IMG/VR virus record: IMGVR_UViG_3300046476_000353
Span: 2,975-66,974 of that record
DNA length: 64,000 bases
Reading direction: 5' to 3' (one strand)
Origin: a virus
Shown: positions 20,147 through 25,117 of the stretch, piece by piece
Position numbering within the stretch: the first letter of the stretch is position 1
How the letters are laid out: each line of letters starts with the position of its first letter
The notes under the pieces: generated by a model
Seen by the model: the letters and a program-made list of their open reading frames with translations, nothing else
What the model was told of the DNA's origin: nothing
Database searches by the model: none
Position numbers and translations under genes: made by a program

Positions 20147-20506
20147 TCAGACTCCAGTCCGGTTGTACTCGTCAACCCGCTCAGGCGGTGACGGCGGATC
20201 GATTCCATGGCCGCGCATCTGCGTCGTCAGCTCCCCGACGTACCCCGCGAACGCCCGGACCAGCGACCGCAGCGACCGGACTTCCTCCCTCGTCGCCGTC
20301 AGGTCAGCCCGCAACTCCGTCTTGATCGCCTCAAAAGCAGCCCGATCCTCAGCCCGCTGGTTCGGCTCGACCTGCACCCGCGCGGCCGCCCGCGTCGCCT
20401 CCGCCGTAGCCGCCGCCGCCCGCGTCGTCGCCCGCGCCGCGAACAATCCAGCCACCACCATGCCCACCGTGCCCAGCACGGCCACGATCCCCGCCCACAC
20501 ACTCAT
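20147..20506 (-). CDS. Lysis-cassette membrane/coiled-coil protein
   Basis: N-terminal TM helix followed by a coiled coil. Confidence 0.65.
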   Translation of the reverse strand: MSVWAGIVAVLGTVGMVVAGLFAARATTRAAAATAEATRAAARVQVEPNQRAEDRAAFEAIKTELRADLTATREEVRSLRSLVRAFAGYVGELTTQMRGHGIDPPSPPERVDEYNRTGV

Positions 20507-20949
20507 GGCGCCTTGCCTCTCCCCGCGGTTCTCGACAGGTGGGGGACCGAATGCTCAGGAACGGTGGCCGCCCACAGGATGACCCCGACATGCGAGGCCA
20601 GGTACCAGATGGCGACGAACCCGCCGCGGGGGAAGGTGCCGTCGATGACCGCCGTCAGGTAGGCGGTCGCCCAGACCGTGGGAGGGATGAGCGCGACCGC
20701 GAAGCCGACGCCGTCACGGCCCACCCGCAGGAACGCGCAGAAGACCGTGATGAGCCCGGCGAGAATCCACAGCCACGCCCAACAGCGCAGCGGCGCGTGG
20801 TCGGTGAGGAGTTCCAGGCCTTGTGGGTTCGGCTGGGGCGCGGCGATGAAGCCCACGCCCCAGCACGTCTTGCCGACGCCGAGGATCAGCAGGAACGTGC
20901 CGCGGCGGCCCAGGGCCTTATGGAACCGCCGGACCGCGCGGCACTGCAC
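20503..20949 (-). CDS. Lysis-cassette four-TM membrane protein
   Basis: Four hydrophobic helices; immediately downstream of the holin. Confidence 0.7.
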   Translation of the reverse strand: MQCRAVRRFHKALGRRGTFLLILGVGKTCWGVGFIAAPQPNPQGLELLTDHAPLRCWAWLWILAGLITVFCAFLRVGRDGVGFAVALIPPTVWATAYLTAVIDGTFPRGGFVAIWYLASHVGVILWAATVPEHSVPHLSRTAGRGKAP

Positions 20950-21258
20950 TCAGGCCGCCTTGACGAGCGAGTCCTGAGCCTTACCGGAGACGCCGACCGG
21001 CTTCCAGAAGCCGAAGTGCGCGAGGACAGCGCTGGCGAAGCTGACGAGCGCCAACACGGCGGCGGTACCGACGGAGTAGCCGGCGTCGTGCGGGCCGGCG
21101 TACTCGGTCATGAACCCGGTCGCGGTGCTGAGCGCGAGCAGAAGCACCGCCTTGATGCCAGCGTCCGTGACTCTCGTGGTGACGAGTCCGACGAGGACGG
21201 GCAGGACGACGGAGACGAGCAGGCCGAGCCAGTAGGCGGAGTCGAGGGTGACGGTCAT
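20950..21258 (-). CDS. Holin
   Basis: Three TM helices in 102 aa, directly after the endolysin. Confidence 0.75.
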   Translation of the reverse strand: MTVTLDSAYWLGLLVSVVLPVLVGLVTTRVTDAGIKAVLLLALSTATGFMTEYAGPHDAGYSVGTAAVLALVSFASAVLAHFGFWKPVGVSGKAQDSLVKAA

Positions 21259-21279: not shown

Positions 21280-22143
21280 TCAGACGTTGGGGACGTGGAG
21301 CCGGGACCAGCTGGACGGGCCCGGGATCCCGTCGGCGGCCGTGCCCGTGTAGCCGAGCTTCCGCTGCCAGGCCGCGTAGCTGCGCTCGTCGCCCGAGCCC
21401 CACACGTCGGCGTTCGCAGCCGAGGCGTAGTGGTTGCAGCCGACAGCCACCAGCCGCTTGTGCATCGCAGCAATCACCGGCGACCGGCGGCCTGTTCGGA
21501 AGAACGCGGCACCCGGGAACGGCTCGTCGACCGGCTTCTGCACCGGCTTCGGCGGGGCAAGGAACGCGGGCCAGGAACCCGGGTCGACGTGCGTGTTCTC
21601 CGGCGTCTCACCGTGCCCGTACCAGCCGCCCTCGGTCTCCCACACATGCTCACTGCGGTGCGGAGAGAAGTCCGTCGGACGACCCATCGGCCACGCCTGC
21701 GGAACACCCCACGACGTCACCCAGTCCTGCAGCGCCTGCCAGCCCTTGCAGGGCGTGTCCTCAAGCTGCGCGTACACCTTGCCGTCCGGGGCCTTGCAGT
21801 ACGGGAAGAACAGCGCCTCGATCTGCAGAACCACCTTCCCGGCCCGGTTCGTTCGGGTCCCGCCAGCGAGGTCGACGACGCTCTTGCTACGGGAGTCGGC
21901 CGGGTAGAACTGTGCGAACCGGCCGCCGAACGGATCCCAGAGGATGTGCGGGGCGACGCCAATCCCGCTGCCGGTGAAGTAGCCGAGGAGGTCGGCGAAC
22001 GGGACGAGGGCCTGCGGCTTGGCCGCGGTGGCGTTGCGATCCCACGTGATGTGAGCGATTGCCTTGGCCGGGTACTGCGTGTCGCACGGGGCGTGGTCCC
22101 CGACGTCGGACCGTATCGCCCCAGGCATCCAGAGATCGGCCAT
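21280..22143 (-). CDS. Endolysin: amidase with C-terminal peptidoglycan-binding domain
   Basis: AHIT, PHILWDP, QIE, GH...PENTHVDPG; AWQRKLG...ADGIPGPSSW. Confidence 0.85.
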   Translation of the reverse strand: MADLWMPGAIRSDVGDHAPCDTQYPAKAIAHITWDRNATAAKPQALVPFADLLGYFTGSGIGVAPHILWDPFGGRFAQFYPADSRSKSVVDLAGGTRTNRAGKVVLQIEALFFPYCKAPDGKVYAQLEDTPCKGWQALQDWVTSWGVPQAWPMGRPTDFSPHRSEHVWETEGGWYGHGETPENTHVDPGSWPAFLAPPKPVQKPVDEPFPGAAFFRTGRRSPVIAAMHKRLVAVGCNHYASAANADVWGSGDERSYAAWQRKLGYTGTAADGIPGPSSWSRLHVPNV

Positions 22144-22145
22144 GG

Positions 22146-23045
22146 TCAGGCTCCCGTCACGTGGTTGTCGTGCGCCCACGCCTGCATCAGAGCCACGACC
22201 TGAACCAGTCGAGGATCCGCAGCAGGAGTGGGCGACGGAGGAGGGGACGGCACCGGACCGGGCCGAGGGACCGGGTTGGCCTCACCGGTCAGCTCCGCGA
22301 ACTGCTCGCCGAGCGCGTAGAAGCTGGGCGCGCCGGTGAAGTAGACGCCCGCGGCTTTCATGCCGTCCGCGTCGAGGGCGACCCACGCTTCGTCGACGTA
22401 GCGCGTCCAGAACCGCCACGTCATCTTCGTCTCGGCGCCCCAGGTGACGATGCCGACGCCGTCCTCGGCGTAGGCGCCGGCGAGGACGCAGTGGCCGCCT
22501 TCGTTCTTGGCGCCGCGGACGACGTCCCAGGGCTGGCCTGCGTTGAACTGCCGCATGGCGGAGTCGGGGAACTGCAGGCCGATACTGACGCTGCCGAACA
22601 GTGCGATCGCCTGGCGGACCTCGACGAGGTTGGCAACATCGAGCGAGGCGTAAGCCACGATCTTGTGCCCGGCGATCCCGGTGGTGCGCCAGTACTTGAG
22701 GGCGTCCTGCACGTAGGTGCCCTGGTCGGTGGGGTTGTTGCCGGGCGGGCCCGCGTTGGGGTCGAAGCCGGTGACGGCGGAGTAGCCCTTGAGGATGTCC
22801 TGGTCGGTGGGCGTGACCTCGGCTCCGGTGGCGTAGTACGTCAGCTGGTTGATCGCGTGGCCGACCTCGGCCCATACGCAATCGCCCCAGTCCGCGTTGC
22901 CGTACATCGGCCAGCGGATGGCGTTGTCCTGCCAGTCCATTGAGGGCGGCGGGGAGGTGAGGCGTTCCCGGAGGACGGGCGACAACCGAAGGTGGGGGCG
23001 TGCGGGTTGGGCGGGGAGTTTCCCGAGCGGGTGGTGTGCGGTCAT
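22146..23045 (-). CDS. Papain-like cysteine peptidase at the head of the lysis cassette
   Basis: N..GDCVWA, GGHCV, IVTWG. Confidence 0.7.
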   Translation of the reverse strand: MTAHHPLGKLPAQPARPHLRLSPVLRERLTSPPPSMDWQDNAIRWPMYGNADWGDCVWAEVGHAINQLTYYATGAEVTPTDQDILKGYSAVTGFDPNAGPPGNNPTDQGTYVQDALKYWRTTGIAGHKIVAYASLDVANLVEVRQAIALFGSVSIGLQFPDSAMRQFNAGQPWDVVRGAKNEGGHCVLAGAYAEDGVGIVTWGAETKMTWRFWTRYVDEAWVALDADGMKAAGVYFTGAPSFYALGEQFAELTGEANPVPRPGPVPSPPPSPTPAADPRLVQVVALMQAWAHDNHVTGA

Positions 23046-23218
23046 GCGGGCCCTCCCACAGATAGCGTCACCTACGAATCGTAGCCTGTGGGCCCTATTC
23101 GACCTACGGATCTAAGGTACGGTTCTATCGGCCCCTTGCTCAGAGGCCGGTGGCAGGGGAGTTCCTTTGCGGGTTGACCCCTGCCACCACAACCCGCAAC
23201 CAACCCGCAGGAGTGCGC

Positions 23219-23827
23219 ATGAGCGACTTCAACCTTCGCCACCTCGTCAGGGGCGTCCTCGCGTCAAGCGAGTTGACCGACCCTCACGCGCTGGCGGACG
23301 AGATCCTCGACCGGATCGACGACGCAGACCTACGCCCCGCGCTGGGTCAGGTATTGGCGAGCATGGTCCGCGAGGAGATCCGTGAACGCCGCAACCGGCA
23401 CTCCCTCGCCTTGCCCGCACCGGCCGTTCGCAGGACGCCGCCTGTCACCTCAGCGCCCCGCCTCACGCTGCACACGCAGTCGGAGGTGATGACCGAGTCA
23501 CCCGGTCCCGTGCCGCGCCCGATGGTCAAGCCCACTCCTCGGCCCGCCCGGTCGGCGAAGGTCGCAGCGATCCGTGCCGCCGCCCCGAAGTGGCTGGAGG
23601 ACCGCTACTGCGTGGGCGGCGGGGACGACGACTGGAAGTTCCTCGGCGACTGCGGATTCACCGACTTGATGTTCGCGGCCGGGCAGCGACGGGAGCAGGC
23701 GGCCCGCACGTCGGCGGTCGCGGAGCGGCTGGAGGGTCTGGCCGAACTCGTGCGCACGCACGGCGTGAAGCGAGTGCGTGATCTGCCCGCCTCGGTTCTC
23801 GACTCTGTTGGGGGTGCGGCGGCGTGA
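23219..23827 (+). CDS. Hypothetical protein, translationally coupled to the TasA-like gene
   Basis: AGGAG RBS; its stop overlaps the next start (GTGA); C-terminal WKFLGDC..DL...GVKRVRDL domain. Confidence 0.75.
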   Translation: MSDFNLRHLVRGVLASSELTDPHALADEILDRIDDADLRPALGQVLASMVREEIRERRNRHSLALPAPAVRRTPPVTSAPRLTLHTQSEVMTESPGPVPRPMVKPTPRPARSAKVAAIRAAAPKWLEDRYCVGGGDDDWKFLGDCGFTDLMFAAGQRREQAARTSAVAERLEGLAELVRTHGVKRVRDLPASVLDSVGGAAA

Positions 23828-24870
23828 CGTACCTCGACCCCAAGACTGGCGCCAGCGGCGGCCATATGAATCGCGAGGCCCAGTGGCCTAACGCTGCTGC
23901 TGGTGCCGCAGACTTCCCCGACGGCCAGAGGATCAGCGAGACCCATCACGTTCCCGCCGTCGGGGAGCACAACCCGCCAACACCGGCCATGCCACGAACG
24001 GCCGCCAATGAAGAGCCGCCGGTGCTGGCGTCCAACCCGTGGGCCGACTCCAACGCCCCGCTCCTCGCGCTCCTCGCCGACGTCCTCGACGACCTTGAGC
24101 GCACCCGCATCGCCAACGAAAACCGACTCCGCCAACTCACCCGCACCGAGACCGACTCGGACGGTGAAGAGCGCGGGTTCGGCCTCACCCTCGACCAGCC
24201 CCAGGTAGCCGCGCTCGCGGACGTGGTGGCAGCCCTCGGCAAGCTGGAGCACCAGTCCACCCTCAACCTCCAGCGTGCAGTGCGGAAACACCCGCTCGGC
24301 CCGTGGGTGAAAGCCACCATCGGCGTCGGCGAGAAACAAGGCGCCCGACTCCTCGCCGCCATCGGTGACCCCTACTGGAACACCCTCCATAACCGGCCGC
24401 GTCTCGTCTCCGAACTGTGGGCGTACTGCGGCCTCCACGTACTCCCCGCCGCCCACAGATCGGACGAAGCCCAAGGTCGTAGCGGCAGCGGGGGCAAGCA
24501 GGGCGACCCCGGCCATAACACCGGCGCACTCCAGGCCCCCGCCGTCGGGGTCGCCCCTACCCGTGCGCGAGGTCAGCGCGCCAACTGGTCCACCACAGCC
24601 AAGACCCGCGCCTACCTCGTCGCCGAATCCTGCATCAAGCAGGCCCGGTCCCCATACCGCGCGGTCTACGACGACGGCCGCAAGAAGTACACCGAAGCCG
24701 TCCACGTCGCACCCTGCCGCCGCTGTGGCCCCTCTGGGAAACCAGCCGCCGAAGGCACCCAGCTCAGTGCCGGACACCAGCACGCCCGCGCCATGCGCCT
24801 CGTCATGAAGGCCGTCCTCAAAGACCTCTGGCTGGAGTCCAAGCGCATCCACGAGGAAGGCCAGCCATGA
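23824..24870 (+). CDS. TasA-like RNA-binding protein (IS110 C-terminal/Nop fold, no nuclease domain)
   Basis: Coiled coil DLERTRIANENRLR; IGVGEKQGARLLAAIGD; SELWAYCGL; GQRANW; YRAVYD..K.Y; HQHARAMR..KAVL.DLW. No DEDD RuvC or HNH motif. Confidence 0.8.
   Translation: MTYLDPKTGASGGHMNREAQWPNAAAGAADFPDGQRISETHHVPAVGEHNPPTPAMPRTAANEEPPVLASNPWADSNAPLLALLADVLDDLERTRIANENRLRQLTRTETDSDGEERGFGLTLDQPQVAALADVVAALGKLEHQSTLNLQRAVRKHPLGPWVKATIGVGEKQGARLLAAIGDPYWNTLHNRPRLVSELWAYCGLHVLPAAHRSDEAQGRSGSGGKQGDPGHNTGALQAPAVGVAPTRARGQRANWSTTAKTRAYLVAESCIKQARSPYRAVYDDGRKKYTEAVHVAPCRRCGPSGKPAAEGTQLSAGHQHARAMRLVMKAVLKDLWLESKRIHEEGQP
23848..24030 (+). ncRNA. Stem-loop TIGR-like guide array, units 1-3
   Basis: Three units at 62-63 nt spacing: 11-15 bp stem, CA, N9, CGnnnnCCA, N9, C, stem. 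Spacers are tatgaatcg/gtggcctaa, gaggatcag/tcacgttcc and tgccacgaa/atgaagagc. Confidence 0.85.
24443..24556 (+). ncRNA. Stem-loop TIGR-like guide array, units 4-5 (inside the Nop domain)
   Basis: Same architecture at 60 nt spacing. Spacers are cagatcgga/aggtcgtag and taacaccgg/ggcccccgc; loops are CGAAGCCCA and CGCACTCCA. Confidence 0.85.
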
Positions 24871-25010
24871 CCGACCCCACCCCCTACGACAACGGCGGCG
24901 TGCTCCGCCCCGGCCTCGTCATCACCACGCTCAAGCCCGGCGAACGCGTCCTCACGCGAGCCGACCTCCAGCGGCTGCGCTCGATGAGCGAACCGGAGGA
25001 CGAGTCGTGA
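24867..25010 (+). CDS. 47-aa protein resembling the tape-measure C-terminal motif
   Basis: Hand translation: MTDPTPYDNGGVLRPGLVITTLKPGERVLTRADLQRL...; ATGA overlap with the upstream gene. Confidence 0.6.
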   Translation: MTDPTPYDNGGVLRPGLVITTLKPGERVLTRADLQRLRSMSEPEDES

Positions 25011-25117
25011 ACGGCATCTGCGCCGGGCTGGCGTTCCTCTTCGCGTTCCTCGTGCTCGCCCCGCACGCCCCGGTCCACGCCTACGACTACCCGACCACCG
25101 CGCGGAGTTCGCGATGA
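25007..25117 (+). CDS. Small hydrophobic peptide
   Basis: Coupled at both ends (GTGA, ATGA); GGAGG RBS. Confidence 0.45.
   Translation: MNGICAGLAFLFAFLVLAPHAPVHAYDYPTTARSSR

Follow-up and report, generated by a model that had tools for sequence, protein, structure and literature searches.

A phage gene at positions 23824–24870 appears to carry a guide array within its own coding sequence: its product is, by our reading, a TasA protein, and two of its five guide units (units 4 and 5) are in-frame tigRNA guides set in the wedge loop of that protein. We give this reading a probability of about 0.85. Positions refer to the window, the whole 64,000-nt stretch of DNA that was analysed, which derives from a virus record of 66,974 bp (IMGVR_UViG_3300046476_000353), that is, from a phage of about 67 kb. 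The phenomenon itself is already in print, as in-frame intragenic stem-loop tigRNAs, typically in disordered regions, are reported in the main text of a recent preprint (Xu et al., bioRxiv 10.64898/2026.09.09.750476); a full-text literature search combining tigRNA and intragenic found no other report. The phage gene is thus an independent rediscovery, in another lineage, of a phenomenon known from that preprint.

The assignment of the gene draws on both its sequence and a predicted structure. The open reading frame lies on the plus strand and encodes 348 amino acids from a putative GTG start at 23824, with other in-frame ATG codons at 23866 and 23989. Its product matches PHROG 4285, labelled 'transposase', over residues 74–346 (E 6e-98), with a query stretch some 40 residues longer than the profile stretch that it covers, while a Pfam search with the 348-residue product returned no family at E up to 1. 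Against the PDB, the single sequence matched TaTasR (9MTY, the TaTasR–tigRNA–DNA complex described in Faure et al. 2025, PMC12045711) at E 1.3e-07 and TasH at E 3.9e-06, and a 38-sequence profile took these values to E 1.8e-23 and E 1e-10, respectively. Likewise, when an AlphaFold2 model of the product (mean pLDDT 76) was used in a Foldseek search, the top ten hits were TasR or TasH chains only (probability 1.00; E 7e-07 for TaTasR), followed by the IS621 recombinase and, far behind, Nop5. The model predicts a coiled-coil helix pair (residues 78–106 and 126–154, pLDDT >90) before the C-terminal domain and ends two residues past a helix at 316–346. Residues 1–69 are predicted to be disordered, and pLDDT falls below 50 solely at residues 5–53, 55–69 and 211–239, the stretches encoded by units 1–3 and by units 4–5. 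No nuclease domain was found, either by Pfam at E up to 1 or in the model, whose N-terminal 69 residues are disordered. A Tas-type fold that lacks a nuclease domain leads us to identify the product, from sequence and model, as TasA, a nuclease-less TIGR-associated Nop-domain protein. The closest relatives of the phage are Streptomyces and Kitasatospora prophages, at about 70% identity.

All five units lie on the plus strand and share one form: stem, CCA-N9-CG, N4, CCA-N9-CG, stem. Units 1–3 occupy a block at 23847–24030 that encodes part of the disordered N-terminus of the protein. Unit 1 (23847–23908, core 23862–23893) has a 15-bp stem and a fold z-score of -4.89; unit 2 (23914–23967, core 23925–23956) has an 11-bp stem with CTT at its 5′ base (z -5.26); and unit 3 (23975–24030, core 23987–24018) has a 12-position stem with one mismatch (z -2.67). 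The second block lies 412 nt from the first and holds the two wedge-loop units. Unit 4 (24443–24494, core 24453–24484) reads CCA-CAGATCGGA-CG, AAGC, CCA-AGGTCGTAG-CG and is enclosed by a stem of 10 positions (24443–24452 with 24485–24494) that includes one C·A mismatch; it is the weakest fold of the five (z -1.91), matched by 8 of 200 shuffles. Unit 5 (24501–24556, core 24513–24544) reads CCA-TAACACCGG-CG, CACT, CCA-GGCCCCCGC-CG and has a 12-bp stem (24501–24512 with 24545–24556; z -3.26). The first CCAs of units 4 and 5 are 60 nt apart. All five units conform to the TIGRFinder stem-loop rule as given in the main text of Xu et al., which calls for a box C of CCA, CGA, CTA or CAA, a 9-nt spacer and a box D of TG or CG, in two 14-nt intervals no more than 15 nt apart and flanked by a stem of at least 5 bp. 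Judged on sequence, units 4 and 5 are therefore stem-loop tigRNA units by published criteria.

Across the 64-kb window, the strict pattern CCA-N9-CG-N4-CCA-N9-CG has seven matches, every one of them on the plus strand and inside the tasA reading frame, against a shuffling expectation of 0.63 (sd 0.75; none of 100 shuffles reached seven). Five of the seven are flanked by stems of 10–15 positions, as compared with 6–8 in background hits. The remaining two were rejected as units: the match at 24435–24466 overlaps unit 4 out of register and falls within the codons for the conserved GLHV, and that at 24759–24790 lies in a conserved helix and has no closing stem (z +0.49). Relaxed motif scans gave weak, scattered matches elsewhere in the window. 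A generic repeat search at the locus found no array, the sole exact repeat being one of 13 nt (23953/24538), and TRF returned nothing; such programs miss the array because each unit has just 10 fixed nucleotides. A scan of 22900–25100 for sigma-70 promoters and terminators gave no match, and such a scan is poorly suited to a high-GC actinophage. A perfect 11-nt inverted repeat (GGTGGCAGGGG and CCCCTGCCACC, 18 nt apart) lies at 23149–23188, in the intergenic DNA where the leftward structural and lysis genes diverge from the rightward tasA operon.

The position of the second block within the protein can be specified with some precision. Units 4 and 5 are in frame and free of stop codons, flanked by WAYCGLHV on one side and APTRARGQRANW on the other, and relative to unit-free homologues the insertion spans 24448–24546 on the plus strand, or approximately residues 209–241, as placed by our protein alignment (A1) and the AlphaFold2 model. 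It adds about 33–37 residues that are predicted to be disordered (pLDDT <50 at 211–239) and that lie, in the model, past the third helix that follows the coiled coil and ahead of the fourth. In the profile alignment, WAYCGLHV is set against LWAYAGYSV of TaTasR, which ends at D214, and the alignment resumes at N215 (GKVQKRKKGVASNWK). The insertion point thus falls between D214 and N215, and the TaTasR wedge is given as G210–K230 in the main text of Xu et al., two boundary residues that were both verified in the profile alignment; this places the insert within the wedge loop. Base composition also shifts here, with GC at codon positions 1, 2 and 3 of 0.74, 0.45 and 0.85 in the tasA core and of 0.82, 0.64 and 0.79 in the insert, a flattening of the GC3 excess. 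The initial annotation had placed two guide units in frame at 24443–24556, 60 nt apart and free of stops, had counted some 40 low-complexity residues added by them, and had described the array as split into blocks about 410 nt apart; direct reading bears out the observation together with its coordinates. Some homologues have a further Cys/His-rich insertion after ESCIKQ (alignment A1, columns ~460–500 and 515–535), and most homologues also share a CxRCGPSGKPA motif, which TaTasR lacks; by sequence, this could be an element that binds zinc. Neither of these sites in alignment A1 contained guide units.

We collected 51 related loci, of which 13 came from genomes and the other 38 from IMG/VR, and the same type of unit was present at nearly all of them, placed upstream of tas, in an open N-terminal extension, in the wedge or at the 3′ end. 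Wedge units were counted at 48 distinct loci, after duplicates and one locus whose contig ends inside the loop (L051) had been dropped, under a relaxed rule that permits up to two departures in the 10 box positions and requires a stem of at least 7; wedge length was measured from the G of WAYCG to NW. Twenty-five loci have no wedge unit and a wedge of 16–25 residues, five have one unit (35, 35, 37, 55 and 62 residues), 14 have two (50–62 residues), three have three (72, 73 and 89 residues) and a single locus has four (97 residues). Loop length thus climbs with unit number in steps of about 19–21 residues. Furthermore, the codon phase is identical in the 46 wedge units, with CCA beginning at codon position 3 and placing His or Gln at every box C, and neighbouring wedge units are spaced 57, 60, 63 or 66 nt apart, while spacings such as 56, 58 and 59 nt are present in non-coding arrays (L037). 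In 15 of the 46 units, one or two of the 10 box positions differ from CCA...CG (TG being counted as a departure), and some of these units may therefore be decaying into plain linker. The amino-acid sequence of the insert is variable because the spacers differ among relatives.

These counts bear on several claims of the initial annotation. It had anticipated that homologues would show zero, one, two or more units at this site and that acquisition would be constrained to keep the frame, and a range of zero to four units in a single codon phase agrees with both. It had also named two outcomes that would speak against it, an insert of fixed length and conserved residues and stems that lack covariation, and neither is what we observe. 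Its suggestion that a dispensable loop had become an expansion site for guides is supported as regards expansion, through the variable number of units at the loop, but 'dispensable' overstates the case in view of the role of the wedge loop in TaTasR, which parts the non-complementary DNA strand from its partner (Faure et al. 2025).

Several side observations concern units outside the wedge and the annotation of these genes. In the open N-terminal extension of tas, units occur in codon phase 1 (n=48) or phase 2 (n=51) and never in phase 0 (0/99), as compared with 19/23/20 for units outside open frames. Phase 0 is the most stop-prone, with a stop in 37% of non-coding units if they are read that way, but stop-proneness by itself does not account for the complete lack of such units. 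From array to core, the tas frame is free of stops at 28 of 44 loci, the corresponding figures for the other two frames being 16 and 6. A coding sequence of 399–424 residues annotated as 'hypothetical protein' spans the N-terminal guide units in the Gordonia phages LonelyBoi, Spooky and BENtherdunthat. The Fromanvirus mycobacteriophages Pinto, Ohno789 and EnzoK have their units in a gap of about 340 nt upstream of the tas gene, which is labelled 'transposase' or 'hypothetical protein' (in other records, 'DNA binding protein'). TIGR-Tas annotation is absent from all of these GenBank phage records (L052–L057).

The pairing of the stems provides a separate line of evidence. In the 339 kb of sequence from these loci, the strict motif, gathered with no stem requirement, gave 178 unique hits on the tas sense strand and five on the antisense strand. 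Stem positions 1–9 flanking the core are paired in 87–94% of the 178 hits, against 43–70% with shuffled partners and 20–59% with slid partners. The excess of G·U over A·C in these stems (70 versus 53) is not large enough to establish the transcribed strand. CTT at position -12, the stem base, occurs in 20 of the 178 units and is the commonest trinucleotide there; in the window it is found in unit 2 only. When seven two-unit wedges are aligned, the boxes are invariant, the spacers unrelated and the flanks conserved, and the two stems are paired in 92.9% of cells, with 9 of 22 pairs changed on both sides. None of 500 shuffles reached any of five measures of this pairing, and slid controls paired at 40–63%. 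Within this alignment, then, both wedge stems covary.

Among the sequencing runs listed for this stretch, several DNA runs contain parts of it and no RNA run does. One of the DNA runs (run X8, record 20) has a 903-nt contig, a close metagenomic variant, that covers 23909–24695 and differs from the window by 61 substitutions and eight gaps of one or two bases. Among the 40 listed of the 61 substitutions, spacers and loops (88 nt) account for 20, boxes (40 nt) for none, stems for two and the remaining 569 nt for 18, of which 15 are at codon position 3. The two stem changes (23980 and 24487) each turn a mismatch into a Watson–Crick pair, the mismatch in the stem of unit 4 being one of those repaired. 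Substitutions within units are distributed 10/5/7 over the three codon positions and at least seven of the nine positions of spacer B of unit 4 differ, again among the 40 listed of 61. The gaps form compensating pairs inside spacers, so that spacer length stays at 9. Even if all 21 unlisted substitutions are placed outside the units, the overall density of substitutions there would be about 7%, versus 23% in spacers and loops. By this pattern of substitution, the flanks evolve as protein and the units as guide RNAs.

It is worth considering how spacers might change so rapidly beside a core that changes almost exclusively at third positions. The replacement of seven of nine positions in one spacer points to cassette-like replacement or recombination, and not to point mutation, with spacers exchanged as exact 9-for-9 blocks and whole units by lengths divisible by 3 in the one codon phase. 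We offer this tentatively, as a mode of turnover that is possible from the sequences at hand but that we consider somewhat less likely than not.

Other explanations of the wedge-loop units deserve to be weighed against their being working guides. One is that they are relics, former guides that are now tolerated as a disordered linker, and we consider this improbable. Neutral decay would hardly be expected to alter spacers and not boxes or to mend the mismatch of unit 4, as the variant does among the 40 listed of its 61 substitutions; units 4 and 5 also retain all 10 box positions, their 9-nt spacers and their 4-nt loops, and the stems covary. What speaks for decay is the stem mismatch and weak fold score of unit 4, the lack of an own-genome target at up to two mismatches for either unit, and the degenerate wedge units of some relatives, for example one in which box C′ reads CCG (L002).

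It is less probable still that the insert has been selected mainly as protein, as an extension of the wedge that touches long tigRNA stems, with the RNA motif a by-product of a repeated peptide. According to the main text of Xu et al., the wedge loop does contact tigRNA and clade-specific Nop insertions co-vary with tigRNA features, and the insert peptide has a loose H/Q...H/Q periodicity; that periodicity, however, is a consequence of the constant codon phase of CCA. The residues between the boxes are unrelated among relatives that are about 70–80% identical overall to the window protein, the insert has pLDDT <50, and unit substitutions are spread 10/5/7 over the codon positions, as against 15 of 18 at the third position elsewhere (40 listed of 61). 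An identical motif is moreover present in the non-coding arrays that precede tas in mycobacteriophage loci. As for the notion that the motif matches arise by chance in GC-rich, low-complexity coding sequence, we give it almost no weight: relaxed scans do yield scattered weak matches in the window, but chance would not readily place seven strict matches, where 0.63 are expected, in a single reading frame on a single strand, give them stems of 10–15 positions where the background has 6–8, or have the units recur at nearly all 51 related loci with stems that pair beyond controls and covary. We thus return to units 4 and 5 as in-frame tigRNA guides.

How such guides would work can be outlined from what has been described elsewhere. 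According to the main text of Xu et al., stem-loop arrays are transcribed and processed to single units, probably by a host RNase near CUU at the stem base, and both TasA and catalytically dead TasR repress transcription at matching DNA. As described in Faure et al. (2025), one spacer pairs with one strand of the DNA and the second with the other strand at an adjacent site, with a tolerance for gaps of 0–2 bp. By extension, a host RNase would probably cleave the sense transcript of the phage gene at the bases of the stems; each unit would be bound by a TasA dimer; the two spacers would pair with opposite strands of an 18–20 bp DNA site; and the TasA–guide complex would block transcription instead of cutting the DNA. 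Release of units 4 and 5 should destroy that copy of the tasA mRNA, and guide output and TasA translation would therefore compete. Furthermore, units are presumably gained or lost singly, in lengths divisible by 3, and the fixed codon phase would follow because every such gain or loss must keep the frame.

The targets of these guides can be addressed in part. A candidate own-genome target of unit 2 lies at 20881–20900, where 17 of 18 positions match in the A + rc(B) geometry with a 2-nt gap; a match this good was reached by only 3 of 2000 shuffled pairs of spacers, or about 0.008 when five units are allowed for. The site falls within the 5′ portion of a gene on the minus strand (20503–20949, PHROG 4026) whose neighbours are a holin gene (20950–21258) and an endolysin gene (21280–22179). 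No target in the 67-kb genome was found for units 1, 3, 4 or 5 at up to two mismatches. Self-targeting as a general rule was rejected, as five other complete phages, with 28 units between them, gave no own-genome match in that geometry at up to two mismatches, and two hits, the level of the control, in the other geometry. The match of unit 2 is suggestive only, and it is a possibility that this unit guides TasA to a gene of the phage's own lysis cassette.

The gene immediately upstream (23219–23827, plus strand, PHROG 4604, function unknown) has a stop codon that overlaps the tasA GTG. A homologue occupies the same place on the same strand at 30 of 48 distinct related loci, and others include gp45 of Gordonia phage LonelyBoi (E 5e-22) and gp71 of Mycobacterium phage Pinto (E 3e-7). 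Searches with the protein gave no Pfam family above the cut-off and no Atlas lead. Dual-repeat TasA loci have tasParB, and the upstream gene might, in a comparable way, encode a partner for TasA in actinophages.

It is informative to compare the phage gene with systems that have already been described. The nearest parallel is TasA of Bifidobacterium longum (BlTasA), whose wedge loop overlaps two tigRNA coding regions and whose intragenic units are expressed, processed and recovered by small-RNA sequencing, according to the main text of Xu et al. Compared with BlTasA as described there, the phage protein has much in common: both are nuclease-less, both belong to an actinobacterial context, and both have units upstream of and inside the coding sequence, with two units in the wedge loop, the frame kept and the intragenic units in disordered segments. 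They differ in that BlTasA has the support of small-RNA sequencing, whereas the phage units are identified here from DNA sequence, and, compared by description, in locus and host range, the phage gene being from a 67-kb phage with kin among Streptomyces and Kitasatospora prophages. A TasA from the Peromyscus leucopus gut, described in Faure et al. (2025), likewise has a stem-loop TIGR array broken into sub-arrays, although these are split by about 450 nt of intergenic DNA, whereas the 412-nt separator in the phage is the effector's own coding sequence for the coiled coil and CTD1. TaTasR (9MTY) has the Nop-domain fold and a wedge loop at the same place but differs in having a RuvC nuclease domain, a short wedge (G210–K230), dual-repeat guides of 36 nt and an array located outside the gene. 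The archaeal and eukaryotic box C/D snoRNPs (Nop5/Nop56/58) also have two guide segments between C/D boxes and are bound by a Nop-domain dimer; however, the fold match is remote (Foldseek E ≥0.26), and phage TasA has no fibrillarin or L7Ae partner and would target DNA, not RNA.

The relationship to IS110 recombinases requires more caution. IS621 has a related Nop-like/Tnp fold (Foldseek 8wt9, E 6e-04), and the GIG...ARLL...AY.G motif block of IS110/IS621 aligns with phage TasA in hhalign. In contrast, phage TasA lacks a DEDD RuvC domain, a catalytic serine loop and a bridge RNA. The initial annotation had equated the loop after this motif with the loop that carries the catalytic serine in IS110 recombinases. 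In IS621 that serine, S241, lies in the loop between Tnp helices α3 and α4 (as described in Hiraizumi et al. 2024), and hhalign pairs AYCGLHVL with QYAGTAPI, a segment that immediately precedes the serine-bearing stretch in a Streptomyces IS110 transposase, which is consistent with the proposed placement; the alignment comprises 39 columns at a probability of just 5.7%. A search of the PDB with the Tas profile reached no IS110 structure, even at E up to 10. The analogy of the two loops is thus reasonable but is not proven residue by residue. The identity of the phage protein as an IS110-family recombinase was rejected: it has no DEDD RuvC-like domain, its N-terminus is disordered and holds guide units, it has no Pfam Transposase_20 match at E up to 1, and a wedge loop with a guide insert stands at the place of the serine loop.

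Within this phage, a single stretch of DNA would serve under two constraints, as an open reading frame and as structured guide RNA, and a guide gene would sit within the gene of the very protein that uses the guide. The comparative and population data provide independent confirmation, from a different phage lineage, of the wedge-loop tigRNAs reported at one Bifidobacterium locus. The main text of Xu et al., figures and supplements aside, mentions neither codon phase nor self-targeting, and the single codon phase, the range of zero to four units across 48 loci and the spacer-specific divergence of the variant go beyond that text. Genes that match PHROG 4285 under the label 'transposase', together with many actinophage genes labelled 'hypothetical protein', would be TasA genes with embedded or adjacent guide arrays. 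If the cassette-like turnover of spacers and units is true, actinophage tasA would offer a natural system in which to see how TIGR arrays acquire spacers.
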